From assembly GCA_963767125.1 (NCBI GenBank), contig CAVYDB010000007.1:78083-142082 (forward strand): a stretch of DNA of 64,000 bases. The letters run 5' to 3'. Each line of letters starts with the position of its first letter. Positions within the stretch are counted from its first letter, which is position 1. Source of the DNA: an uncultured Bacteroidota bacterium. Its GTDB lineage: Bacteria > Bacteroidota > Bacteroidia > JABEUT01. A program made the position numbers and the translations under genes. Below, in pieces: positions 10,453 through 43,445 of this stretch. The notes beneath the pieces were generated by a model. It made no database searches. It saw nothing but the letters and a program-made list of their open reading frames with translations, and was not told the DNA's origin.

Positions 10453-10495
10453 CAAAAATATAGTTTGAAAAGCGGGTTTGGGGAAAGTCATTGAC
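10453..10495 (-). promoter_or_regulatory. Composite late-type promoter upstream of terL (palindrome + -7 box)
   Basis: On the minus strand: AAAGTCAATGACTTT-type palindrome (core 10487-10495), a 26-nt gap, then TATTTTTG (10453-10460, matching TAnnTTTG). The same architecture occurs at four prophage late-region sites. Confidence 0.55.
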
Positions 10496-10585
10496 TTTCC
10501 CTTATATCAAGAAACGAAGCCAAGCCCTGTATTATTCCAACTTATGGGGCATATATGCACTTACGAAAAAAAACCGATGCCTGAT

Positions 10586-10610
10586 AAAAAGACAGCAATG
10601 CTGCCTTTTT
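10586..10610 (-). terminator. Intrinsic terminator of the adenosine deaminase gene
   Basis: The minus strand reads AGGCAGC-ATT-GCTGTCT (7-bp stem with one G-U) followed by TTTTTAT, about 95 nt after the stop at 10705. Confidence 0.5.
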
Positions 10611-10704
10611 CCATAGAACTTACTTTCCCATCATTCCTGTTATTTTCTTGTTGCATAAGGGAATAGGGCATCATTTCCCCGTCTTTAATTTATAGTTGAA
10701 AAAA

Positions 10705-12156
10705 TCAATATCCCTTACCCTGTGCAGTTATTTCAGCTTCAAAAGATTCAAACCGTTCTTTCAATTTTCTTACCTCACCCTGTTTTTCAGGTTCACTTAA
10801 AAAGGAATATTGTATGCTATTAAATACTATTCTTTTTATTTGCTTATAAGAAAACTTATACCGCGAAGCCAGTAAAACATATTCATGGGTAAGGCTGCTA
10901 CGGGAAACCCCGGCATCATCGGTACAAATAACAACAGGCACCCCGGCATCGTAATACAGATTTACAGGATGATTTTTCCCTTTAATACCTAAAATAAATT
11001 CATTGCTTGACAGATTTATTTCCACGGCTATGGAATCTGTTTTCATTTTTTTCAGCAATTCCAGTGAATTGGTTTCATACGGAATATCTACCCCATGCCC
11101 TATACGGTTGGCTTTGGCAATATATACCGCATCGTGAATGTGATACGCCAGATCTTCGGGTTTCACCATCCCTAGGCTTAGTTCCCCGGCATGCATAGCG
11201 GTTTTAACGGATGGAAATTTATTTTTTAAATACTTAAACATCTGCATGTGCAGCCAGTAATCTCTCATAGAGATGTAATTATTCTCGGGTGCAACAATAT
11301 TTACTCCCACTAACAGCGAAGACTTATCACGGTTCACAGCATCGAAACAGCTATACAACATAGAAAAAACCTTTGCGGGTGCAACTACCCTTACGGCATA
11401 CGCCTGGTAGCGCATAGTAAAACCAGAATCATCAATACCCGCATGGTAAGCATGAACACTGTCAATATAATTGGCTATTGATTTATCGTATCCGGAGGAA
11501 GATTTGATAGAATTCACCAGTAAATCAAATAATTGATAGAGGTGGGCGGTATCTTTTTTGGTTTGGTAATAAAGTAAGGAATCTTCCAGTCTTTCCCTGA
11601 AATCTATATACACATCGGGTATGCTTAACATGGTTTCTACATACTGGATATTCTGCTTTTCAGCTTCCAGCTTAATTTCTGCAAGTCCCGCGCGGTAAAG
11701 GGCTTTGCTGATATACCCGAAAAAAGAAAAGGTATTGAAAAAATGCTGGTCCGGCGGGTCCTCGATGTGAAAGTTATTGGAGAAATCTTCATCAGACCAT
11801 TGCTCCAATACAGCACGGTAGAGTATAGTATTCTCCATTAATGAGTCAATGGTGATGTGCGACTTTATGGTATCGGCCTGGCACAGTTTGAACGTCCTTG
11901 CATCTATATGAAAGTTTTTGCTTTTAGCCCAGTCAAGGTAGGTTTCGGCATACAAGGAGCCGGAATAGTGATGATGCAGGTCTCCACCCTTAGGCATCAT
12001 AGACATAAACAAAGTCAGCTTTGCATTGTCTCCTTCCTTTTTAATGGCGTTAAAATATTTCTCTGTACTATTTTCATTTCTACGGTGCCGGTTGCAAGAT
12101 GCGACAAACAGCGCGAGAGGCAGTAGATATAAAATGATGGTTGGTTTTATTCTCAT
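10705..12156 (-). CDS. Adenosine deaminase family protein, secreted lipoprotein
   Basis: Lipoprotein signal LLPLALFVASC. Metal-binding motifs are GGDLHHHYSGS, MHAGE and VVICTDDAGV, typical of adenosine/AMP deaminase-fold enzymes. Confidence 0.65.
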   Translation of the reverse strand: MRIKPTIILYLLPLALFVASCNRHRRNENSTEKYFNAIKKEGDNAKLTLFMSMMPKGGDLHHHYSGSLYAETYLDWAKSKNFHIDARTFKLCQADTIKSHITIDSLMENTILYRAVLEQWSDEDFSNNFHIEDPPDQHFFNTFSFFGYISKALYRAGLAEIKLEAEKQNIQYVETMLSIPDVYIDFRERLEDSLLYYQTKKDTAHLYQLFDLLVNSIKSSSGYDKSIANYIDSVHAYHAGIDDSGFTMRYQAYAVRVVAPAKVFSMLYSCFDAVNRDKSSLLVGVNIVAPENNYISMRDYWLHMQMFKYLKNKFPSVKTAMHAGELSLGMVKPEDLAYHIHDAVYIAKANRIGHGVDIPYETNSLELLKKMKTDSIAVEINLSSNEFILGIKGKNHPVNLYYDAGVPVVICTDDAGVSRSSLTHEYVLLASRYKFSYKQIKRIVFNSIQYSFLSEPEKQGEVRKLKERFESFEAEITAQGKGY

Positions 12157-12366
12157 AGGTATTTTCCATTTTTAAAAAATGGTATGGTAAAAATACCTAA
12201 AAAAATGGGGCAGCGCCCGACTACTAAAAAAACGGCATAAAACGGCATATCGCTTACCTAAGGATAAAGCAACTTGCACAATCATATTAAAATTTACGCC
12301 TTCCTTTCATGCATACAAATCATAATTTCACTCTGAAGTTTTGTATTTTCGCCTGAAATACTGAAC

Positions 12367-14091
12367 ATGAAGTACCTCGCTATTCCCTCGCTTTTATTCC
12401 TGCTGCTAATTAGTAATTCTTCATGTAATAACGCAGGCAATAGTTCCGGAATAAAATCGATACCCACATCAGATGCCACCATTAAAAACCTTACTGTTCT
12501 AGGGAAAGTATGGGGTTTTCTGAAATATTATCACCCGGCTATTGCAAAAGGGAGCTACGACTGGGATGCACAGTTATTCAAAATTCTTCCGGAATATAGT
12601 AGTTGTAAAACAGCCGAAAGCAGGAACCATCTGTTGTCCGCATGGATAGACGGATTGGGTAAAGTTCCCAATAACCCTACTCCTGAAATGGATACAGCCC
12701 ATGCTAAATTGTATCCTGATTTGAATTGGATTTATGATACCCTAACTCTTGGAAATACATTGTCGAAACAGCTTATTCAAATCAAAAATGCAAGCAGAAC
12801 CGGGCTGAATTATTATGTGAATTTAACATCGGGAATAGGAAACCCCGTTTTTAGCAATGAAAAACCGTATAAAACCACTGCCTGTCCCGATGCAGGACTG
12901 CGTTTGTTAGCTTTGTACAGGTATTGGAATATCATAAACTATTTTTATCCCAATAAATATCTCATAGGCGGAAACTGGGATAGTATATTGACCGAATTTA
13001 TCCCGAAATTTTTAAGCGATTCAACGAATATCAATTACAGGTTAACCGCATTAGAACTAATAGGCAGTATCCACGATTCTCATGCAGTTATTTACAGTGA
13101 TACTGTAAATATGAACGCTGATACTATTTTGGCAAATCATTTCGGTAAATACATACCTCCTGTTCTTGCAAGGTTTATCGGAGACACTGCTATTGTAACT
13201 ATAGTACGCAATCTTCCTGGAGAGAAACCCCCGGGTTTAGATACTGGAGATATTATTTTATCTATTAATAATAAACCTATAAAAAATGCTATAAAAGATT
13301 GGCTGCCATTCTCAGGGGCATCTAACTACCCTACCCAACTGAGGAATATTAGCTTTTCGCTTTTCGAGTCGAAAGATACTACGTTAAAAATTACGTATGA
13401 AAGAGATAATAAGATAGATTCTACCATACTAAAGTGTTATACCATGAATGAGTTACGGAAAAAGGTCGGGTTATTTAAGAAGGATACCTGCTTTAAATAC
13501 CTCTCTCCTGATATATGTTACATTTACCCGGAGAATATTAAAATAAAATATATAGCTGATATGATGGCATATTTCATGAAAACAAAAGGGATGGTTATAG
13601 ATATGCGCTGTTATCCGTCAGAAGTAATCTTTCCTGAGTTAAGCAGGTATTTACTTCCATCGAGAAAAATATTTGCAAGATTTACGGCGGGCAATATTAA
13701 AACTCCGGGCTTATTTTGCTTTACCGACACGGCTGCGGCTGGAGATTACTATAATCCGAATTATTATTACAAGGGCAAAGTAGTGATACTGGTAAATGAA
13801 ATGACCCAAAGCCAGGCAGAGTTTACTACCATGGCATTCCGTGTTTCGCCCAACGCCACTGTGTTAGGCAGCACCACAGCAGGGGCCGACGGAAATGTAT
13901 CGTTTTTCACCTTGCCCGGCGATATAACAACTGCCATTAGCGGAATCGGGGTTTATTATCCCGACGGAAAAGAAACACAAAGAATTGGTATCGTACCCGA
14001 TGTGGTTGTTAATCCTACCGTAAACGGAATTAGAAAACACCATGATGAAGTGCTTGAAAAGGCAGTGGAAATAATAAATGCGGGCAATTGA
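12367..14091 (+). CDS. S41 family peptidase (tail-specific protease-like) lipoprotein
   Basis: Lipoprotein signal LLLISNSSC. A PDZ-like segment (GDIILSINNKPI) is followed by a C-terminal S41 block (GKVVILVNEMTQSQAEFTTMAF...GSTTAGADG). Confidence 0.6.
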   Translation: MKYLAIPSLLFLLLISNSSCNNAGNSSGIKSIPTSDATIKNLTVLGKVWGFLKYYHPAIAKGSYDWDAQLFKILPEYSSCKTAESRNHLLSAWIDGLGKVPNNPTPEMDTAHAKLYPDLNWIYDTLTLGNTLSKQLIQIKNASRTGLNYYVNLTSGIGNPVFSNEKPYKTTACPDAGLRLLALYRYWNIINYFYPNKYLIGGNWDSILTEFIPKFLSDSTNINYRLTALELIGSIHDSHAVIYSDTVNMNADTILANHFGKYIPPVLARFIGDTAIVTIVRNLPGEKPPGLDTGDIILSINNKPIKNAIKDWLPFSGASNYPTQLRNISFSLFESKDTTLKITYERDNKIDSTILKCYTMNELRKKVGLFKKDTCFKYLSPDICYIYPENIKIKYIADMMAYFMKTKGMVIDMRCYPSEVIFPELSRYLLPSRKIFARFTAGNIKTPGLFCFTDTAAAGDYYNPNYYYKGKVVILVNEMTQSQAEFTTMAFRVSPNATVLGSTTAGADGNVSFFTLPGDITTAISGIGVYYPDGKETQRIGIVPDVVVNPTVNGIRKHHDEVLEKAVEIINAGN

Positions 14092-31225: not shown

Positions 31226-33313
31226 TTATTTCACCACATCCACCCGTTGAACCAGGGTGCTGCCATTTTGCAAAATCACTTTCAGGATATAAACTCCGGT
31301 AGGGAATTGGCTGGTATTGATAACCGATAATTGTGAATTTTCTGAACCATTGAATTGGTGGGCATAAACTTGCTGGCCGGTAATAGAATATACTTCTATA
31401 GACTGAGCCGCTTTCTGCCCTTGTAATTGAACGGTAAATTCATCGGTGGCAGGATTAGGATATACTGCTATGCGGGCATTATTGGTAATAGTGGGGACAC
31501 CTACCGTGCAACTGCTTACAATAATACTCTGCTGGGCGGTACTGCCACATCCGGCTGAATCGGTATAAGAGTACGTAAAATTATATGTACCTGGTCCGGC
31601 AGCATTTGGGTTAAACACGTTCCCTGTTAAATTTGGGCCACCATACATACCACCGGCAGGAATACCAAAAAGGGTGTCTGCCAATAAGGAATCGCAAGCA
31701 GAATAAATCCCTGCATTCAGAATAACAAGCGGTATAGGCAGCGTGGTAACATACGCTTGCGCTGAATCATAACAGCCATTGGTATCATTTACAAATACAT
31801 AATATCCTATAGTACCTGTATCGGCAGGAACAGTAAGGGTATCTTCGGTTTGTCCATTATAATCCCAGGTATAAGTCAGCGGACCCATTCCGCCGGAAGC
31901 CCCGGCAGTCAATAATACCTCCGTATTAGCACATATTGATGGGTTTGGAGGGGTCAGCGTAATCGTAATAGCAGCAGGTTGGGTAATTACCACCGTACCC
32001 GTACCGGAACATCCTATACCATCGGTAATAGTAACCGTATAAGTTCCGGCAGATACATTGTCAACTTCAGAATTGGTACTGCCCGTTGGCGACCAGGAGT
32101 AAGTATAAGGAGCAAAAGGAGAAACCGGGAATGCTACAATTATACCATCGGTGCCTCCGTTACATTCCGGGTAGTTATATGATACCGCAGTGGCAGAGTC
32201 GCCCACACAGCCCGGGGTGATTTTTCTAATCCTGTTGTTTCCCAGGTCAGATATAAAGAGGTTTCCGTTCGCATCGGGTATCGCATCAAACGCATAATTT
32301 ATTTCAGCAAGATAAGCCGCTCCGCCATCGCCGCTAAATCCGGCAGTGTTATCTCCGGCAATGGCATACATAGTATTATTACTTGCAACTACTTCCCAAA
32401 CTAAGGCATTACCCGGGTCGGAAATAAAAACATTACCGTTAGCATCGGTAGTTACATTGGTAGGGTCCCAAATTTCGGTAGTATCAGGTGTGCCTGAAAA
32501 CCCGTTAAAACCTGGTGTCCGGTTTCCGGCAAATGTGCTGATTACCCCTGCGGCAGTAACCTTACGAACATCATTGCTATTATATTCGGCTATATACATA
32601 TTTCCGGTAGGGTCAATAGCTACACCGGCCGGTTGGTTTAATTCAGCAAGGGTAGCCTGTGCGCCGTCGCCGGAAAAGCCTCCATTATTTGTGCCTGCTC
32701 CAAAACCATTTCCCGCTACTGTTGTTATAACTCCGGTGCCTACGGTTACTTTACGAATTACATGGTTGGTTTGGTCAGCTATATATACGTTCTGCGCATT
32801 ATCAAGGCATATTCCCGTGGGGTCGGCAAATTCAGCCGCCGTAGCTTGTCCGCCATTGCCGGTATATCCTCCAAAACCGTTTCCGGCTATGGTGCTTATT
32901 CTTCCTGTACCCACAGTTATCTTGCGGATAACACCGTTTCCGTTATCAGAGAAATAAACATTCCCCGTCGGGTCAACACGTACACACACCGGGTAGTCTA
33001 TTTCTGCCGCCGTAGCAAGCCCACCATCGCCGGTATAACCGCCAACACCTCGTCCGCCTATCGTGGTTATAAGCCCCGTGGTGCTTACCTTACGGATACG
33101 GTTATTTTGAGAATCGGCTATATATATATTGCCGGTAGCATCTACGGCAACACTGTTGTTTTGGTCCAGGTCGGCAAGCGTAGCCTGTATATTATCTCCA
33201 TTATACCCGGCTGCAGCTCGGCCGGCTACGGTAGATATGATTCCCGATTGGGCATGCAACATGGCAAGGGACGAACCCAGCGCAACGAATGTAAATGCAA
33301 GTAGTTTTTTCAT
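31226..33313 (-). CDS. NHL-repeat + SprB-type repeat protein with T9SS C-terminal sorting domain
   Basis: Signal peptide ...LAMLHAQ. About seven repeats follow of the type TVAG.G..GY.GDGG.AT.AE...P.GV..D..GN.YIAD..N..IRKV. A Cys-rich SprB-like segment (CNGGTDG...YTYSWSPTG...GTYTVTITDGIGCS) comes next. The C-terminus is VYPNPATDEFTV...IEVYSITGQQVY...TGVYILKV. Confidence 0.7.
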   Translation of the reverse strand: MKKLLAFTFVALGSSLAMLHAQSGIISTVAGRAAAGYNGDNIQATLADLDQNNSVAVDATGNIYIADSQNNRIRKVSTTGLITTIGGRGVGGYTGDGGLATAAEIDYPVCVRVDPTGNVYFSDNGNGVIRKITVGTGRISTIAGNGFGGYTGNGGQATAAEFADPTGICLDNAQNVYIADQTNHVIRKVTVGTGVITTVAGNGFGAGTNNGGFSGDGAQATLAELNQPAGVAIDPTGNMYIAEYNSNDVRKVTAAGVISTFAGNRTPGFNGFSGTPDTTEIWDPTNVTTDANGNVFISDPGNALVWEVVASNNTMYAIAGDNTAGFSGDGGAAYLAEINYAFDAIPDANGNLFISDLGNNRIRKITPGCVGDSATAVSYNYPECNGGTDGIIVAFPVSPFAPYTYSWSPTGSTNSEVDNVSAGTYTVTITDGIGCSGTGTVVITQPAAITITLTPPNPSICANTEVLLTAGASGGMGPLTYTWDYNGQTEDTLTVPADTGTIGYYVFVNDTNGCYDSAQAYVTTLPIPLVILNAGIYSACDSLLADTLFGIPAGGMYGGPNLTGNVFNPNAAGPGTYNFTYSYTDSAGCGSTAQQSIIVSSCTVGVPTITNNARIAVYPNPATDEFTVQLQGQKAAQSIEVYSITGQQVYAHQFNGSENSQLSVINTSQFPTGVYILKVILQNGSTLVQRVDVVK

Positions 33314-33745
33314 AGTTTTATAATAAAATAAATTTAGCAGTTTTAATGATTAATTTTTTTTAAGTTTCAAGGTTCTCTGAAAGGCGTTACAAAAATCAAT
33401 ATGCAATATTACAAAAAATATGCTTCTGTGCAACAAAAAGCATAAATTATTAGTAATTTATTAATAACCAGTGACATTTCATCTCCGTTTATCTTGTTTT
33501 CAAGTAGGTTTTATTACCAGGTAGGTTTATAACAAAAGATTCTGAAAGCCCGATAATATAGATTTCTTTCCAGACCTGATGGGGGTATATCTGTACTGGG
33601 TTTTAAGTGAGAACGGCGAATTAGAGGGGAAGGGGGAAGTGGGGGCATATCCTTTTAAGCTTGGCTTTGTTTGTAAGTACAACTTACTTGTTATTAACCC
33701 ACTAAGCACAGCTTAGCGGGTACGGGGGCTTGGGGCATAACCTAC

Positions 33746-35128
33746 CTATTTTATAATTACTATTTTATCTCTTTTCACTATATTATTATCTACCGAAATT
33801 CTGTATAAATAAATGCCCTCACTTAGCGTACTTGCATTAATGTTCATTTTATCACTATTGGCATCCAATGTATATTCCGCCAGTTTTTCTCCTAACATAT
33901 TGTAAATGGTAAATTCCCCGGTTTGTCCCGTCTGCAATTGATACGTTAGGGTGAAGCCTCCGTTATTGGGGTTGGGGAAAACAGACACTTGCCCTTTTTC
34001 CATCTGTAAATTATTAATTCCAAGCGGGGTTCTCCATTGAGCAATATTATTGGCTGGAGTCCCTCCGGCATTAGTGAAAGTGCCGGCTGCAAAAAGTGCA
34101 GCGTTAAAATTATACAAGGAATAAACATACCCATTCATTCCCGAACCGAATGTTCCCCAGGTTGCTCCATTCCAATAGGCGATATTCTTTGCAGGTATGC
34201 CTCCTGCTGTATCAAAAATTCCTCCAACACATACAGCCGAATCATATACACATAAACCGAAAACATAATGATTGAGATGCAAATTATAAGGTATTCCAGT
34301 TCCTAACTGAGCCCAGGTGGTCCCATTCCACATAGCGATATTATTGCCCGGTTGTCCTCCGGCGCTATCAAATTGCCCTCCTACATAAAGAAGATTATTA
34401 AATACTGCCATACTTAAAACAGAGCCGTTTTTACTGATTCCCCCATTTACCGCAGTCCATGTCGTTCCGTTCCACTTTGCAATATTATTCACTGCAATAC
34501 TACCTGCACTATCGAAAGTACCACCCGCATAGAGTTCACCATTATAAGTACATAGAACATCAATGGGGACATAATTATTACGGCTATTACGAATGCCTGT
34601 TCCTACAGATGCCCATGCCGTACCATTCCATTTGGCAATATTGGTAGTATTCATTCCCCCGGCACTATCAAAATAGCCTCCTGCATAAAGTTCCCCGTTG
34701 TATATACATAAGGCATTAATTACAGCATTCGTAGTATATGATATTCCTAAGCCAACCGGCGCCCAAAGTATTCCATTCCACGCAGCAATAGTATAAACAG
34801 GCAAAATTCCTGAACTGTCAAATCGTCCTCCGGCATATAAAAGACCATTATAAACACATAGCGCATTAACCTCATTATTTAACCCTGAATCTAAGACAGA
34901 CCAACTTGTTCCATTCCATTCTGCTATACCATTACATCGTCTCCCGCCTGCATAATTAAAATCTCCTGCGGCATAGAGATTGTTTTGAAATTGAGTTTGT
35001 GCATATACTCCGCCCAAGGCTGACCCCGGAGAATAAGATATGATTCCATGGTTAAGAGAATCCCAATTTTGAGCATTAACGAAAAGGAAACTAAAAACGA
35101 AGCCAGAGAGTATGAGTAGTTTTTTCAT
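33746..35128 (-). CDS. Beta-propeller repeat protein with T9SS C-terminal sorting domain
   Basis: The ATG at 35128 gives signal MKKLLILSGFVFSFLFVNAQ. About 7 repeats follow of NIA.WNGT.W...G.G......V.AL..YNG.LYAGG.FD.AGG. The C-terminus is VFPNPNNGGFTL...FTIYNMLGEKLAEY...EGIYLYRISV. Confidence 0.7.
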   Translation of the reverse strand: MKKLLILSGFVFSFLFVNAQNWDSLNHGIISYSPGSALGGVYAQTQFQNNLYAAGDFNYAGGRRCNGIAEWNGTSWSVLDSGLNNEVNALCVYNGLLYAGGRFDSSGILPVYTIAAWNGILWAPVGLGISYTTNAVINALCIYNGELYAGGYFDSAGGMNTTNIAKWNGTAWASVGTGIRNSRNNYVPIDVLCTYNGELYAGGTFDSAGSIAVNNIAKWNGTTWTAVNGGISKNGSVLSMAVFNNLLYVGGQFDSAGGQPGNNIAMWNGTTWAQLGTGIPYNLHLNHYVFGLCVYDSAVCVGGIFDTAGGIPAKNIAYWNGATWGTFGSGMNGYVYSLYNFNAALFAAGTFTNAGGTPANNIAQWRTPLGINNLQMEKGQVSVFPNPNNGGFTLTYQLQTGQTGEFTIYNMLGEKLAEYTLDANSDKMNINASTLSEGIYLYRISVDNNIVKRDKIVIIK

Positions 35129-35313
35129 AGCATTTAATTTTGACCAAATATGATTATTCAAATCCTTTTTGTCAAGCTACATTTATTAAATGGCGGGTTT
35201 GACTTATTAAACGGTGGGTTTTGGGGGATAAAAAGAGGTTTTATCGCTCTATAATCACCTTCCCTTCCCCGAACCCCGCTCTTTCCTCCCCCCCATGGGG
35301 GAGAGCATATCTT

Positions 35314-36723
35314 TTACTTCTCCACCACCACTTTCCCTTCCCCTTCTAAACTACCGTTCTCACCTGTTACCCTATAAAGATAAACCCCGTTAGGTTGATT
35401 TGTCAGGTTAATCTCATTCAAAGCCCCTTTAGGGGTTTGGGGCTGAAGGGTTTCAGCCAGCACTTTTTCTCCTAATACATTATAAATCTCGACTGACAAC
35501 TGATTACTAATAACTGACGACTGCATGGTGAAAATGCCATTATTTGGATTAGGGTAAATTATCAACCCTGCGCCATCAAAACTTGTGTGATTAATATCAG
35601 TGGCAATCAGCCCGATTACCTTGCGGATTATATTATTACCCCAATCGGCAATGTAGAGGTTTCCGGAAGCATCACAAGCTACGTCGCTAGGGTCTTCCAA
35701 TTCAGCGGCTGTGGCGGGTCCTCCGTCCCCACTGTAACCATATCCGAAAGAAACATTCCCCGCTATAGTGCTTATGATTCCGAAGGTATTTACCATGCGG
35801 ACTACTTGAAGATTAAAATCGGCAATATAAAGGTTTCCAGAACGGTCGAAAGTTACACCATAGGGAGCATATAATTCAGCGCCTGTGGCGGGTCCTCCAT
35901 CCCCGCTATAACCAGCACCGTATCCATTATTCCCTGCTACAGTACTGATGGTTCCGGACGTATTCACCTTACGGATTATATAATTATCATTATCTGCAAT
36001 ATAGAGGTTTCCGGAAGCATCAAAAGTTATTCCTTCAGGATAGTATAATTCAGCGGCTGTGGCGGGTCCTCCGTCACCGCTGTAGCCTGGTCCTAATATA
36101 TAATTACCGGCTACAGTGCTTATGATCCCGGAAGTATTCACCATCCGGATTACGCTATTACCCCAATCAATAATGCAGAGATTGCCGGAGACGTCTAAAG
36201 CTACTCCTGCAGGAGAAGATAAATCAGCGGCTGTGGCGGGTCCTCCGTCACCATTGTAACCACCTATGTGATTACCCGCTACGGTACTTATGGTTCCGGA
36301 CGTATTCACCTTACGGATTATATTATTATTCATATCTGCAATATAGAGGTTATCGGAAGCGTCAAGAGCTACTCCGTAAGGATAATTTAATTCAGCAGCT
36401 GTAGCGGGTCCTCCGTCCCCGCTATAACCGGCTCCATGTGCATGATTACCCGCTACTGTACTTATGATTCCGGAGGTATTCACCTTGCGGATCACTTGAT
36501 TATACATCTCTGCAATGTAGAGGTTGCCGGAAGCATCAAAAGCTACTCCGTTTGGTCCATTTAATTGAGCGGCTGTGGCGGGTCCTCCGTCTCCATAATA
36601 ACCGGCTCCAAACGCATAATTACCTGCAACAGTAGAGATGGTTTGAGCACTGCAAAAAGTGAAAAGTGAAAAGCCAAGAACTAAGAGTGAAAATACAAGT
36701 CTTAAGGTAAGTTTTGTTTTCAT
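35314..36723 (-). CDS. NHL-repeat protein with T9SS C-terminal sorting domain
   Basis: Eight near-regular repeats IISTVAGN...GYSGDGGPATAAEL..P.GV..DASGNLYIAD..N.IIRKVNTSG. The C-terminus is IYPNPNNGIFTM...VEIYNVLGEKV...NGVYLYRVTGENG. Confidence 0.75.
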   Translation of the reverse strand: MKTKLTLRLVFSLLVLGFSLFTFCSAQTISTVAGNYAFGAGYYGDGGPATAAQLNGPNGVAFDASGNLYIAEMYNQVIRKVNTSGIISTVAGNHAHGAGYSGDGGPATAAELNYPYGVALDASDNLYIADMNNNIIRKVNTSGTISTVAGNHIGGYNGDGGPATAADLSSPAGVALDVSGNLCIIDWGNSVIRMVNTSGIISTVAGNYILGPGYSGDGGPATAAELYYPEGITFDASGNLYIADNDNYIIRKVNTSGTISTVAGNNGYGAGYSGDGGPATGAELYAPYGVTFDRSGNLYIADFNLQVVRMVNTFGIISTIAGNVSFGYGYSGDGGPATAAELEDPSDVACDASGNLYIADWGNNIIRKVIGLIATDINHTSFDGAGLIIYPNPNNGIFTMQSSVISNQLSVEIYNVLGEKVLAETLQPQTPKGALNEINLTNQPNGVYLYRVTGENGSLEGEGKVVVEK

Positions 36724-36889: not shown

Positions 36890-38659
36890 TTATTTCTGAA
36901 TTATCAATTTCCCTTGTCCAACCAATTCGCCATTCTCACTTAAAACCCTGTATAGATATATTCCATTGGGTTGAGAAGAAAGATTTATGTTGAATGTTGA
37001 GTTTTGAAGGTTGGATTGGGGATGCACTTGTTGACCAAATACATTATAAATCTCCACCGTTGACTGATGACTGGCCACTGACGACTGAATACTAAAATTG
37101 CCATTATTCGGATTGGGGAAAACTATTACCCCTATGTCTTCTTTGGGAGGCGAGTGCACCGTTGTGACTACATCTCCACATTCTCCCCATCGGGCTATAA
37201 AAGGAGAAAGATTTTCACTTGGAAAGTTATTATGGTAAGTAAAAGGGGTAACTGTATCACCTCCAAAAGACATTACGGTTGCAGTAGTACTTCCAAAATA
37301 AATATAATTGCCTGAGGTATCAGAGGAAATGGAATTAGTTTGTCCGCCTCCTCCTGATATTATTGAGGAGCATAATGTATTTCCATTTGAATCTAATTTG
37401 AAAACTATAGATGCTTCATCATACATAGAAGTATCGAAAAGACTCACGGTATCGCCTCCAAAAGCAACTTTACAATTATAGTAACCACCACCAACTGAAA
37501 GATAAATATGCTTATAATTATCTATTGAAAGTCCTCCCACAACCCACTCGTTGCTATCCAAAACTTCACAACTTTTTGCCCAAAGAACATTTCCACCCGA
37601 GTCATATTTGGTAAGAAAAAAACTATATTGTGATTGCGGAGAAATATTTTCTGCTATCAGTGTGTCAGTTCCAATTATTACCGAATCTAAATAGTCCCCT
37701 GCAAGATAAATATTTCCTGATGCATCTGATACTAAGGCATTGCCTTCGTTTTGACAATTACTACCTGGTTGGTATGTTTGTTTTGCCCAAATAATTATAC
37801 CATCAGGTGAATATTTTACAAGAAATGCATCATCTGCATTTATTGATAGCAGTTGATAAGCCCCAAACCAAATTGTATCTGAAAACCCCCCTGTAATATA
37901 AGTATATCCTTTGGCATCATTAACTACACCTAATCCGTCTCCCTCATTGTATTCAAAAGAATGACCTGTTCCCGCGCTTGCCCACAGAATATTACCAATA
38001 GAATCATATTTAACAAGAAAAGGGAGAGGAATATGTCTGTTTCCAAACATCAATGTAGAACCAAAAAAGACTGTGTCCGCCGAAAAAATACCTGTTACAA
38101 ATACATCACCTTTAATATCAACTGAAATGGAGTTTGAGGCTACTCCACTTGAATCAAAACTGTTGGTAGTCGGAGAAGTTGCCCAACGTAAATTCCCATC
38201 AGAACTATATTTACCGACCCAATAATCTTCTGTACCGATTGTGATAGGGAAAATAAATGTATAAGAACCAATAATTGCAGTATCGAAATATGCTGCATTA
38301 ATATAAATATTCCCTGCATTATCGAGAGTAATTGTTCCTCCATTACCCCAATTAATATTCCCGTAATTGACAGATTGCCTGACCCATTGTATATCTCCGG
38401 AATTATTATATTTTACTAAAAATGAACTTAATCCATTTTGGTTATGAGGGGGATTTATCAAAATACTATCCAAGAAACTAAGTGTATCATCACTATAATA
38501 ATACCCACTTAAATAACAGTTACCGAGACCATCAGAACCAGCAGATTCACCGAATCCATAACCAATACCACCCTTACCCCATAACCAGCTTTGAGCAAAT
38601 GAAAAATGAAAAGTGAAAAGTGAAAAATAAAATAGCAGGAGTACAATTTTCTTTCTCAT
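36890..38659 (-). CDS. SBBP-type beta-propeller repeat protein with T9SS C-terminal sorting domain
   Basis: Repeats of G..Y.TG.F.D...FG......D.FLVKY...G...WA. The C-terminus is VFPNPNNGNFSI...VEIYNVFGQQV...NGIYLYRVLSENG. Confidence 0.7.
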   Translation of the reverse strand: MRKKIVLLLFYFSLFTFHFSFAQSWLWGKGGIGYGFGESAGSDGLGNCYLSGYYYSDDTLSFLDSILINPPHNQNGLSSFLVKYNNSGDIQWVRQSVNYGNINWGNGGTITLDNAGNIYINAAYFDTAIIGSYTFIFPITIGTEDYWVGKYSSDGNLRWATSPTTNSFDSSGVASNSISVDIKGDVFVTGIFSADTVFFGSTLMFGNRHIPLPFLVKYDSIGNILWASAGTGHSFEYNEGDGLGVVNDAKGYTYITGGFSDTIWFGAYQLLSINADDAFLVKYSPDGIIIWAKQTYQPGSNCQNEGNALVSDASGNIYLAGDYLDSVIIGTDTLIAENISPQSQYSFFLTKYDSGGNVLWAKSCEVLDSNEWVVGGLSIDNYKHIYLSVGGGYYNCKVAFGGDTVSLFDTSMYDEASIVFKLDSNGNTLCSSIISGGGGQTNSISSDTSGNYIYFGSTTATVMSFGGDTVTPFTYHNNFPSENLSPFIARWGECGDVVTTVHSPPKEDIGVIVFPNPNNGNFSIQSSVASHQSTVEIYNVFGQQVHPQSNLQNSTFNINLSSQPNGIYLYRVLSENGELVGQGKLIIQK

Positions 38660-38710: not shown

Positions 38711-38947
38711 TTATTTTATAATTACTATTTTATCTCTTTTCACTATATTATTATTTACTGAAATTCTGTATAAATAAATACCTTGGCTTAAGTTGCTTGC
38801 ATTAATGTTCATTTTATCGCTATTGGCGTCTAATGTATATTCCGCCAGTTTTTCTCCTAACATATTGTAAATGGTAAATTCCCCGGTTTGTCCTTTCAGT
38901 AATTGATACGTCAGGGTGAAGCCCCCGTTATTCGGGTTGGGATATAA
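38711..38947 (-). pseudogene. Orphan T9SS CTD-coding fragment (no signal peptide or body)
   Basis: Own translation: LYPNPNNGGFTLTYQLLKGQTGEFTIYNMLGEKLAEYTLDANSDKMNINASNLSQGIYLYRISVNNNIVKRDKIVIIK*. It is near-identical at nucleotide level to 33746-33985. An in-frame TGA at 38966-38968 cuts off anything upstream. Confidence 0.85.
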
Positions 38948-38963
38948 GTTAAAGCTGAACCAA

Positions 38964-39080
38964 GTTCAGCATGACTACAAGATAAACATATCCTCCCAAT
39001 CCAACGGAATTTATTTTTATAGGATGCTGAAAGAAAATGGTGATTTAATTGGCGAAGGAAAGGTGATGATAGAAAAGTAG
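38964..39080 (+). pseudogene. Second orphan CTD-coding fragment, convergent with the first
   Basis: Own translation: VQHDYKINISSQSNGIYFYRMLKENGDLIGEGKVMIEK*, which is the last ~35 aa of a CTD only. It abuts the minus-strand fragment at the palindrome GCTGAAC-CAA-GTTCAGC (38954-38970). Confidence 0.75.
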
Positions 39081-39412
39081 GGATTTTAGCGCAAATTATG
39101 GCGTTAAAATAGAGCAGTAAATAATGAAAATGCATTTATCGTATAATTTTTTATTAACCTTTGCTTAACTAAAAACACCCCCTGAAACTCAATAGGGACA
39201 CAAGTCTTGGGGAATAGCCTCATACTCTGAATGTTAAGTAGCCGGATTTATGTCTCGCCCAAACGCCAGCCCGAAACATTCCTGCCCGAAAGGCATGGTC
39301 AGGCGGGCATTCTGGCGGGTACCATCCGGTATGGGCGGGCGTTTTATGCCGTTATTTTTATGGCTTAAAGTTCATTAACATTTCCTATCTTGGTCCTCAT
39401 AAAATTACTTGT

Positions 39413-41023
39413 ATGATAAAATCATTTACCTTTTTAGTATTTTTCATCTTCGGCTCCCTGCTTGCAGCAGGACAAAGCTGGGAATGGGCTAAGCAAGGCC
39501 TGGGCGCCTCCGGCGAAGGCATGGCAGTGGCAACCGATAAAACCGGAAATTCTTTCCTCACCGGAAATTTTTACGATACCCTGCATTTCGGTTCCAATAC
39601 TATCTCCACCCCTTCGGGAGATGTTTTCCTGGTAAAATATGATGCAAGCGGAAATGCATTGTGGGCAGTGCAATCTACCGCCGGATACGGGGCTTTCCCC
39701 TACTCCCTCGCCACCGACGATTCGGGCAATGTGTATATGACAGGCACCATTCTGTCACACATCACCTTTGATACCATAACGCTAAATGGCGCCGGAATAT
39801 TTATGGTGAAATATGACGGGAATGGCGCCGTTAAATGGGCTAAACGACAAAATTTCACCAGGGGGTTGTCGGTTTCGGTTGATGCGGAAGGGTTTCCGTA
39901 CTTCGCCGGAGACTTGTACCTGCTAAAATACAGCCCTAACGGTACTTTGCTTTTTGCTCTTAATTTCTCAACTAATGCCGAATGTTTTGGGATTTCAGCC
40001 ACGCCGGGCAAAAGAACCGCCAGTGCAGAATATATTACAGGCTATTTCAAAGGCAGCGCTATATTCGGCTCCGATACATTGGTTTGCAATAGCAGCACCG
40101 ATAATATTTTTCTTGTGAAATACGATTCGGCGGGGAATGAACTGTGGGCAAGGCAATCTGAAACACCGGGGTTTATGTATTCCTATATCACCAATGGCGG
40201 TTGGTGTGCGGTAGCCGCCGATATTAATGGGAATGCGTATATCACCGGGTTTTATAACAGCAGTATTTCGTTTGGAGCCGATACGCTGCCTTCGGGGTAT
40301 AACCTTTACCAACCTAATATGTATGTTGCCAAATACGATGCAAACGGGAATGTAAAATGGGCAAGTTCCATTTCATCTACCGATAGCTCTGTGGTAGGTG
40401 GATACGCTATTGCTGCTGATACTAATAATGGAATTTATTTTTCGGGCAGCTGCACTCCAAATCATACAAATAAAACATCGGTTACCTACCGGAGTGATAC
40501 CTTCAGTATCATTAACCCGGGCGATGCAGCCATTTTTATGGAATGTGATTCATCGGGCGCAGCGCTATGCGGGGGCTTGTTACGGAGCGGAGGTGATGAT
40601 AATAGCAGTGTGGCATGTGACCTTACGGGGAAATATATTTACTTCGGAGGCGATGCTGAATTTCAAACTATTCTTGGTACAGATACAGTGGGTTTCGGCG
40701 CCGACAGTGTAGAATTGCCTTTTGTAGCCCGCTGGCAAAACTGCTCCGGCGATATAATATCGGGTATTAATAAAGCCAAAAACAAGGAAGGAATAAATGT
40801 ATATCCCAACCCCTTTGATGCTTTTACTACCATTGCTTTAAGCAAAGGCGGCGAATATATCCTTGAAGTAGATGACCTGACCGGAAGAACAATAAAATAC
40901 ATAGAATTTACAGGAACAGAATATGAACTAACCGAACAGGGCTTGGCAAAAGGAATTTATTTTATTCGTGTATTCGATAACGAAAAAAATATAATTGGGG
41001 TAAGTAAGGTTGTGGTGCAGTAA
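39413..41023 (+). CDS. SBBP-type beta-propeller repeat protein with T9SS C-terminal sorting domain
   Basis: Signal peptide ...LLAAGQS. Repeats are GN.Y.TG.F...I.FG.DTL......D.FLVKYD..GN.LWA. The C-terminus is VYPNPFDAFTTI...GIYFIRVFDNEKN. It is an inverted paralog of 36890-38659. Confidence 0.7.
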   Translation: MIKSFTFLVFFIFGSLLAAGQSWEWAKQGLGASGEGMAVATDKTGNSFLTGNFYDTLHFGSNTISTPSGDVFLVKYDASGNALWAVQSTAGYGAFPYSLATDDSGNVYMTGTILSHITFDTITLNGAGIFMVKYDGNGAVKWAKRQNFTRGLSVSVDAEGFPYFAGDLYLLKYSPNGTLLFALNFSTNAECFGISATPGKRTASAEYITGYFKGSAIFGSDTLVCNSSTDNIFLVKYDSAGNELWARQSETPGFMYSYITNGGWCAVAADINGNAYITGFYNSSISFGADTLPSGYNLYQPNMYVAKYDANGNVKWASSISSTDSSVVGGYAIAADTNNGIYFSGSCTPNHTNKTSVTYRSDTFSIINPGDAAIFMECDSSGAALCGGLLRSGGDDNSSVACDLTGKYIYFGGDAEFQTILGTDTVGFGADSVELPFVARWQNCSGDIISGINKAKNKEGINVYPNPFDAFTTIALSKGGEYILEVDDLTGRTIKYIEFTGTEYELTEQGLAKGIYFIRVFDNEKNIIGVSKVVVQ

Positions 41024-42878: not shown

Positions 42879-43445
42879 TCAGCTTTCAGCCATTAGTTTA
42901 CTATTATATTTAATTAAATTATAAATCCGGTTCAACCAGCCATCTAAAAAAACATCCTGGCTATGATCGTTCTTTGCCTGTGCAAACGAAATTATATCGA
43001 AGCAGTATTGCCTGCGGCGCTCTATCAGTGATTCATATAATGAACCGGCATCACATGAATTAAGGGTTTCAATAGTGGCGGGTCCAAACACACTATCTTC
43101 TGCCAGGTGTTTATTGAAAATAGTATTGATTAATTTTTGTATATCCAGTTCAGGAAAATGTTGCCCGCTGCACCATACCCAGTCGGCAATGGTGTTGGCA
43201 ATGCACTGGTCGGCAACCTGGTCGGCAAGGCATTTATCCCAATAACAGGCTTTAAATAGCTGTGTCCAGTCATCGGCCTGCATAGCCCTGAAACGATGGC
43301 GACTGGCGGAAGCATCTCCAAAAAACGAAACCCAGCTATTCCAGGTAATACCTTTATTGGTTTCCCCTCCCTTATCTGCGGGGTTATTCACATACCCGCC
43401 TTCGGCAGCAAGTATAAAGGGAACCAGCTTTGACGCACTTGCCAT
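42879..43445 (-). CDS. Endolysin, glycoside hydrolase family 108 with PG_binding_3-like C-terminal domain
   Basis: N-terminal ILAAEGGYVNNPADKGGETNKGIT is the GH108 catalytic motif. GPATIETLN lies further downstream. Confidence 0.85.
   Translation of the reverse strand: MASASKLVPFILAAEGGYVNNPADKGGETNKGITWNSWVSFFGDASASRHRFRAMQADDWTQLFKACYWDKCLADQVADQCIANTIADWVWCSGQHFPELDIQKLINTIFNKHLAEDSVFGPATIETLNSCDAGSLYESLIERRRQYCFDIISFAQAKNDHSQDVFLDGWLNRIYNLIKYNSKLMAES

Follow-up and report, generated by a model that had tools for sequence, protein, structure and literature searches.

A probable deletion scar joining the remnants of two type IX secretion cargo genes, and older exchange of C-terminal domains, in an uncultured Bacteroidota bacterium

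G000, a metagenome-assembled genome (MAG) of an uncultured Bacteroidota bacterium (3.55 Mb, 49 contigs, ~79% complete), encodes about 200 cargo genes of the type IX secretion system (T9SS), and here we examine a site at which the C-terminal domains (CTDs) of two such genes lie end against end as remnants. The site spans positions 38711-39080 of a 64,000-nt window, the whole stretch of DNA that was analysed (C7:78083-142082). To its left, four tandem CTD genes on the minus strand form a same-strand array (31226-33313, 33746-35161, 35314-36723 and 36890-38659); rightward of the array follow a minus-strand CTD remnant (fragment A, 38711-38953), a plus-strand CTD remnant (fragment B, 38954-39080), a plus-strand copy of an intergenic repeat (39143-39363) and a plus-strand CTD gene (39413-41023). 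The two genes that enclose this block, the SBBP-like T9SS cargo gene 36890-38659 (minus) and the SBBP/CTD cargo gene 39413-41023 (plus; PF06739 and PF18962 matches), are inverted paralogs, as the first-pass annotation of the window, made from its letters alone, had noted; they share 34% identity. We call the lost minus-strand large T9SS cargo gene from which fragment A derives gene X, and the lost plus-strand CTD gene from which fragment B derives gene Y. In our reading the site is probably a dead deletion scar, left by the loss of X and Y in the ordinary turnover of a gene family.

Fragment A encodes, in full, a T9SS CTD of type A; it has 78 codons, with a TAA stop at 38711-38713 and the codons for F-N upstream of the domain; its minus-strand translation reads stop-TWFSFNLYPNPNNGGFTL...VKRDKIVIIK-stop. 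It matches PF18962 over model positions 1-75 (54.8 bits, cut-off 27 bits) and the type A sorting domain TIGR04183 over positions 1-71 of 72 (57.1 bits, cut-off 23 bits), a full-length match beyond both curated cut-offs, and there are zero stops and zero indels over its 78 codons. It fails as a functional cargo gene: an in-frame TGA lies at 38966-38968, six codons upstream of the CTD, the first ATG falls inside the CTD, and there is neither a signal peptide nor a gene body; the TGA and the lack of signal peptide and body agree with the earlier description of this segment. The stop codon of fragment A precedes the start of gene 36890-38659 by 52 bp, in the place expected for the 3' end of a fifth member of the array.

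Fragment B comprises the last 42 codons of the Y CTD and a TAG stop at 39078-39080; its translation, ...KLNQVQHDYKINISSQSNGIYFYRMLKENGDLIGEGKVMIEK-stop, ends at 39080, where the end of a different, plus-strand CTD had been placed before. It belongs to a common CTD subtype, ...ATLNQVQGDNxINLSSQPNGIYLYRV..GEGKVxIEK, and aligns with many intact CTDs (protein alignment, 11 paralogs). It is the C-terminal half of the domain only: it matches positions 38-82 (E 9e-14) of a hidden Markov model (HMM) trained on G000's own CTDs, for which iteration 2 was used since iteration 3 drifted (1018 matches), whereas it falls below the test for a full-length CTD (PF18962 model 46-70 only, 18.3 bits, E 0.003) and has no NCBIfam match. 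Lacking CTD positions 1-37 and an upstream open reading frame (ORF), it too fails as functional cargo. The fragments had been described as fused tail-to-tail, but they are divergent and stand head-to-head, with their cut 5' ends abutting and their stop codons facing outwards. Having no start codon, signal peptide or body, neither stub could be exported, and both are presumably non-functional.

The junction between the two lies at 38953/38954, with ~1-2 nt of uncertainty: X-derived DNA extends to 38953 and Y-derived DNA begins at 38954, with no filler between them, in a sequence known from one MAG assembly alone. In a nucleotide alignment, G000 and the X gene of the genome G016 are identical over 17 nt, TTGGGATATAAGTTAAA, up to 38953 and unrelated past that point. 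In BLAST comparisons, the X-type CTDs of G016 and G005 stop at 38953, the Y-type CTDs of five genomes (G013, G006, G004, G020 and G022) start at 38954-38955, and the nucleotide homology of fragment B to intact G000 paralogs begins at 38955. The junction joins a point 3 codons upstream of the X CTD to about position 38 of the Y CTD, in inverted orientation.

The palindrome GCTGAAC-CAA-GTTCAGC (7-3-7) is present at 38954-38970 (plus strand) and is the sole inverted repeat at the junction, but the fragments do not meet at it, as had been proposed: the true junction is at its left foot, and the palindrome lies wholly within the coding sequence of fragment B, in codons for (K)-L-N-Q-V-Q-(H). At least 15 intact CTD genes of G000 have ACC CTG AA(T/A) CAA GTT CAG at the same CTD position; 13 of the 17 palindrome bases are inherited, and a synonymous AAT>AAC change together with the flanking G and C completes the symmetry. 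Judged by position alone, a palindrome at the junction would have looked mildly non-random (2.6% of the window falls within 12 nt of a perfect palindrome with 7-bp arms), and the Y-side breakpoint is the exact foot of this small hairpin-capable motif. As a recombination site, the palindrome is ruled out by its identity with the family coding motif T-L-N/K-Q-V-Q of at least 15 intact paralogs; it was neither made by the join nor needed for it.

The origin of fragment A is revealed by two genomes of the same genus, G016 and G009, in which the orthologues of gene 36890-38659 (49% identity, G016:C67:4534-6309; 51%, G009:C121:37273-39030) lie directly downstream of an intact X. The X ORF of G016 contig C67 spans at least 1690 aa before it runs off the contig, lies 21 bp upstream of the 36890 orthologue on the same strand and ends in ...HSAFNLYPNPNNGGFTLEYNLEKGQSGTFTIFDMLGK...VKQDKLVIIK-stop; that of G009 (C121), of ~2500 aa, lies about 55 bp upstream, again on the same strand. 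The CTD of fragment A is 61% identical to its counterpart in G016, 58% to that in G009 and 43% to that in G005, where the ORF with a CTD of the fragment A type is at least 1624 aa long. Fragment A and the X CTDs have in common the edge residues F-N/S-L-Y-P-N-P, where the array paralog 33746-35161 reads V-S-V-F-P-N-P. The G016 X protein matches G000 through its CTD only, with fragment A as the best match (63%, E 7e-28) and the CTD of gene 33746 next (55%), and its residues 1-1570 have no match in any of the 49 G000 contigs. An intact X at the syntenic position, the shared CTD type and edge, and the best protein match together identify fragment A as the tail of a lost X orthologue, the body of which is absent from the G000 assembly.

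For gene Y, the homology of fragment B to CTD ends and the presence downstream of the usual repeat, in its customary orientation and spacing, indicate that a plus-strand CTD gene, since lost, really ended here; the ~220-nt repeat copy at 39143-39363 begins 62 nt after the Y stop and marks an intact Y 3' flank. The alignments thereby bear out, for both fragments, a homology to the CTDs of intact genes that the first-pass annotation had put forward as a check, and its proposal that the site is a rearrangement scar made from the remnants of two real CTD-bearing genes stands.

These observations suggest an ancestral layout in which X, on the minus strand, would have stood directly upstream of gene 36890-38659 as the fifth member of the same-strand array, with Y to its right in divergent orientation, followed by the usual 3' repeat of Y and by gene 39413-41023; the order would have been X CTD, X body, spacer, Y body and Y CTD. 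One illegitimate (non-homologous) deletion, or a few in succession, may then have removed the X body, the spacer and everything in Y ahead of its last 42 codons, so that the complete X CTD became joined straight to the Y stub. As the partners are inverted and share no homology at the join, such a deletion must have been illegitimate, possibly through microhomology or hairpin-associated slippage. What the data show are the identities of the two CTDs, the synteny, the place of the breakpoint, the missing X body and the mismatch in descent of CTD and body; a single step, the order of events and the mechanism we infer from this arrangement. The absence of both the X body and a reciprocal junction from the assembly argues for a deletion scar and not an inversion, and the other bodyless CTD tails in G000 indicate that such relics are a normal product of turnover here. 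The scar itself would be of little importance, the dead remnant of two lost surface-protein genes.

Several observations weigh against a deletion scar of this kind. The X breakpoint falls just 3 codons upstream of the start of the CTD model, a coincidence of ~0.4% in a gene of ~2500 codons, which hints at a non-random break or at stepwise trimming. The Y side defies reconstruction: G009 differs from G000 upstream of X, its CTD gene there being on the same strand as X and accompanied by a TraG-like gene, and no close relative of gene 39413-41023 or of fragment B was found in the public genome and metagenome contig collections searched (an exact 24-mer of fragment B has 0 matches in metagenome contigs). 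With the MAG ~79% complete, the X body could sit in unassembled DNA. Finally, neither a read nor an independent assembly spans 38742-38958, and the junction rests on a single assembly. The organism is carried at 2-5x depth by public runs from two soil metagenomes, whose contigs are single-read sized; Logan contigs stop at 38741, one starts at 38959 and none spans 38742-38958, the breaks falling at 31-mers shared by both CTD copies. An exact-protein look-up retrieved one 2.3-kb Logan contig for gene 36890-38659, ending at 38741, and none for gene 39413-41023. An alternative joint, 38978 to 37101, seen at 85% likeness, was gone at 90% and is treated as a paralog artefact. The locus illustrates how short-read assemblies break exactly where CTD k-mers are shared.

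The X CTD has a second copy in the same array. Its X-type counterpart, at 33746-33982 (minus), forms the end of the intact gene 33746-35161, and the shared tract begins at the conserved PNP motif (~33976) and closes with the stop codon: 38712-38941 and 33747-33976 are 91% identical over 230 nt without a gap, and fragment A and the 33746 CTD are the sole two copies of this subtype in the 3.55-Mb assembly. The two segments had been called almost identical; they are homologous indeed, but their synonymous divergence (dS, by Nei-Gojobori estimates, as for dN/dS) is 0.40, with a dN/dS of 0.08-0.10. Past the stop codon the two loci are unrelated, and gene 33746 keeps its own 'VSVF' edge, so that the tract is sharp-edged within unrelated flanks. 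The body of gene 33746 is a ~390-aa propeller, Rax2/DUF5122-like, and its closest relatives, from four other genomes and 44-47% identical through the body, have CTDs of the common subtype, which are 29-34% identical to fragment A; the histories of CTD and body are therefore discordant, the second mark of gene conversion. Since the relatives of gene 33746 have the other subtype and the X orthologues have that of fragment A, it is gene 33746 that acquired the X CTD. Fragment A is ancestral at all three differences between the copies that outgroups resolve (Y, K and N).

We propose that gene 33746, which is unrelated to X and lies 5 kb off in the same array, received a copy of the X CTD in place of its original one, and that this is why an intact gene bears a near-copy of fragment A. 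A dS of 0.40 makes the transfer old, and the copying would long predate the deletion. The low dN/dS indicates that purifying selection acted on both copies for almost the entire period after the transfer, and that the truncation of X is recent by comparison.

Exchange confined to the CTD is not limited to this pair. About a dozen further gene pairs in G000 show 81-94% nucleotide identity beginning within ~15 nt of the CTD start; about half of these tracts reach the stop codon (within 19 nt) and the others end inside the CTD. The pairs are mostly neighbours, and their bodies were unrelated by blastp in all nine of the intact-gene pairs compared; C20_78657 and C7_188317, for example, are 94.3% identical over 245 nt and have unrelated bodies. 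None of the CTD-confined tracts exceeds 94% identity, and pairs at 97% or above are whole-gene duplicates. Taken with the dS of 0.40, the lack of any CTD-confined tract above 94% leaves nothing that points to ongoing cassette shuffling, an activity that the first-pass annotation had entertained. Its broader idea, that CTD ends act as recombination substrates, fares well for gene 33746 and the dozen or so pairs and fails for the junction itself, which is no homologous crossover between CTDs. CTD-confined exchange is thus recurrent but episodic; the notion of CTD ends as recombination substrates is partly supported, that of an active shuffling device is not.

These exchanges bear on a reading in which the site is the breakpoint of an inversion or cargo swap, inverted CTD repeats having recombined so that the two stubs mark one breakpoint, possibly still switching. 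In its favour are the inverted paralogy of the SBBP genes on either side and the CTD-confined exchanges seen in G000; moreover, the opposite-strand CTD relics at 33555-33641, inside the array, and in fragment B, at the array's upstream end, make past strand changes near the array plausible. Even so, we consider such an origin very unlikely. Had inverted CTDs crossed over, equivalent positions would be joined and each gene would retain a body, neither of which holds here, and an inversion with these breakpoints would leave an X body and a product consisting of a body plus CTD positions 1-37; both are absent from the assembly, in which no gene body ends in just the N-terminal half of a CTD that could be the reciprocal inversion product or the partner of fragment B. 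An inversion of cargo at the junction, as first suggested, is contradicted by the absence of the X body and of the reciprocal junction. The palindrome is inherited coding sequence, no inverted sites flank an invertible segment, and searches with PF00239 and PF00589 found no serine or tyrosine recombinase gene on the 360-kb contig C7 (the sole PF00239 match is on C17; PF00589 matches are on C43, C49, C8, C18, C2 and C44).

The position of the X breakpoint near the domain boundary also invites the idea that in this lineage type A CTD ends are portable modules that need no recombinase, delimited by the invariant PNP motif upstream and by the stop or the 220-nt repeat downstream, with intact orphans such as fragment A persisting as donors and a cut almost exactly at the boundary as their signature. 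We think this very improbable; if it were true, cargo genes could swap their secretion and anchoring tags.

The lack of an independent contig across the junction, in a draft MAG of 49 contigs and 79% completeness, might instead suggest an assembly artefact, that is, a chimeric join at 38953/38954 with X and Y intact in the real genome, and CTD repeats are trouble spots in short-read assembly, where they are known to trouble assemblers. This, too, seems to us most unlikely: the sequence to the left of the join is X-type only and that to the right Y-type only, so that no repeat shared across it could mislead a de Bruijn assembler; the flanks are syntenically sensible, with fragment A in the place of the X 3' end and fragment B followed by the repeat; the short independent contigs that exist match the window at 100% identity to the left and to the right of the join; and the X body is absent from all 49 contigs.

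That fragment A is kept as a silent donor cassette, a promoterless template for CTD gene conversion in the manner of pilS or vls, appears extremely unlikely, although it is complete and uninterrupted with a dN/dS of ~0.1, keeps the ancestral Y, K and N, and has a copy on gene 33746: there is one cassette and one recipient only, a dS of 0.40 between the copies excludes recent transfer, the low dN/dS would follow just as well if function had been lost recently, identity in CTD-confined tracts nowhere rises above 94%, and the remaining relics, fragment B among them, are incomplete and in decay. An insertion of the array into gene Y was rejected, the ORFs left of the block (28-30.4 kb) having no CTD or cargo features. 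A deletion scar remains the reading that we prefer.

Relics of the same kind occur elsewhere in G000. Among 247 CTD HMM matches, 226 have an open frame of at least 120 aa upstream; about 15 of the 201 strong CTD segments seem orphaned, and most of these pair, across a frameshift, with an open body immediately upstream. Truly bodyless tails lie at C11:82667-82915, C31:97599-97703, C10:75687-75842 and window 33555-33641. The last, a third orphan CTD tail in the window (...GVYLYWVLSENGELEGKGEV..., plus strand), is decayed and without a proper end, and lies in the spacer between genes 31226-33313 and 33746-35161; it matches 36905-36991 in inverted orientation (70% over 87 nt) as well as CTD ends elsewhere in G000. 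Facing against the array, it seems to be an older remnant of a further CTD gene that was lost or inverted. A second case resembling fragment A is the CTD segment C5:21643-21885, which has just 18 open codons upstream and is 92.8% identical over 250 nt, from CTD start to stop, to C5:23914-24156 on an intact gene at a distance of 2 kb. Seven cargo genes have a CTD that is out of frame with an open upstream body or lies past a stop after it (C15:74652-76498, C7:225755-227736, C20:60857-62784, C25:107182-108589, C5:22938-24156, C2:38954-40000 and C7:164511-166464); these may be real pseudogenes, assembly indels or something else, and the clustering of their breaks near the CTD may be an artefact of a detection that favours breaks there.

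The repeat downstream of Y is one of 73 nhmmer matches in G000, of which ~25 are full copies (C43:10225-10442 and C7:207483-207695 are examples) and ~45 have the first ~110 nt only. Its core is conserved from 'ACTAAAAACACCCCCTGAAACCC', with a conserved TTTG just upstream, and ends in a GC-rich hairpin and a T-run. Of the full copies, 19 of 24 directly follow a gene on their own strand, and 11 of 25 come after a CTD gene, where ~6% would be expected (P 1e-7). The repeat matches no Rfam family, and BLAST found no match in 40 relatives except one of 35 nt in G017, which makes it look species-specific. A structured RNA at 39100-39400 was considered and set aside, with no Rfam family found and the region accounted for by the repeat family; the alignment of copies shows no covariation because they are too alike. 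The repeat could be an element resembling miniature inverted-repeat transposable elements, a terminator cassette or a small RNA family. Several gene pairs share CTD, 3' spacer and repeat as a single high-identity tract (84-92% over 478-704 nt): that between C20:78657-79132 and C7:207212-207695 (90% over 478 nt) begins at the CTD boundary (-2/+4 nt), and those between C20:207735-208377 and both C47:42527-43169 and C30:28947-29533 begin 39-68 nt upstream of it. The repeat may serve as a downstream homology anchor for CTD replacement.

The opposite ends of the cargo genes show likenesses of their own. The signal-peptide-coding ends at 36655-36680 and 38602-38627 share a GAAAAGTGAAAAGTGAAAA-type stretch (antisense of FSLFTFHFS), and leader ends of this type belong to neighbouring cargo genes with unrelated bodies. 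Near-identical leader-end matches of 27-35 nt recur many times over in same-genus genomes, which suggests that these genes possess a second conserved module in the leader end. As to the wider neighbourhood, the region upstream of X in G009 (C121) encodes a TraG/TrwB-type coupling protein at 10490-13519 of locus L029, which points to a conjugative element beside the pair of X and the 36890 orthologue in that genome, and the flank of the corresponding neighbourhood in G000 holds putative Mu-like prophage genes, with a GH108 endolysin at window 42879-43445. The locus appears to lie in a mobile-element-rich, rearrangement-prone region in G000 and G009 alike.

What the locus and its relatives have to say of modest wider interest is that in G000 the secretion tag behaves as a module that can be transplanted among unrelated cargo genes, with a direction of transfer that can be inferred for gene 33746 from its relatives. 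The result is relevant to the diversification of secreted and surface proteomes in Bacteroidota, and carries a practical warning for annotation and phylogeny: likeness between CTDs does not follow the ancestry of the cargo, and orphan CTD matches are usually relics or frameshift partners.

Among known systems, programmed DNA inversion (the G segment of phage Mu with Gin, shufflons with Rci, the invertible promoters of Bacteroides) resembles the site in that oppositely oriented 3' gene segments are adjacent; it differs in that here there is no recombinase on the contig, no flanking inverted sites and no constant 5' gene part, and the arms of the palindrome are adjacent coding sequence, unlike the sites of such systems. 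Silent-cassette antigenic variation, as in Neisseria pilS and Borrelia vls, likewise places a promoterless partial copy near expressed paralogs, but here there is a single cassette with a dS of 0.40, no mosaic tracts and nothing to indicate repeated transfer. The scar belongs with the ordinary truncated-paralog relics of bacterial multigene arrays, with which it shares the lack of body, start and signal peptide, an intact syntenic orthologue in the case of fragment A, a filler-free junction and sibling stubs; it departs from them in that two oppositely oriented stubs abut and that one is a complete domain cut almost at its boundary. The transplant onto gene 33746, in turn, is a case of domain replacement, or segmental gene conversion, of the kind that occurs between paralogous genes for surface proteins. 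In the literature we found no account of CTD-confined exchange, only general work on domain rearrangement in Porphyromonas gingivalis, where the T9SS cargo genes rgpA, kgp and hagA show a modularity of adhesin and catalytic domains with the CTD as the conserved constant (Dashper et al. 2017, PMC5266723). The two cases are alike in that a high-identity module lies between otherwise different and mostly nearby genes for T9SS surface proteins; in contrast to P. gingivalis, the module exchanged in G000 is the secretion signal, a CTD tract bounded by the PNP motif and the stop codon, and the bodies that bear it are unrelated.

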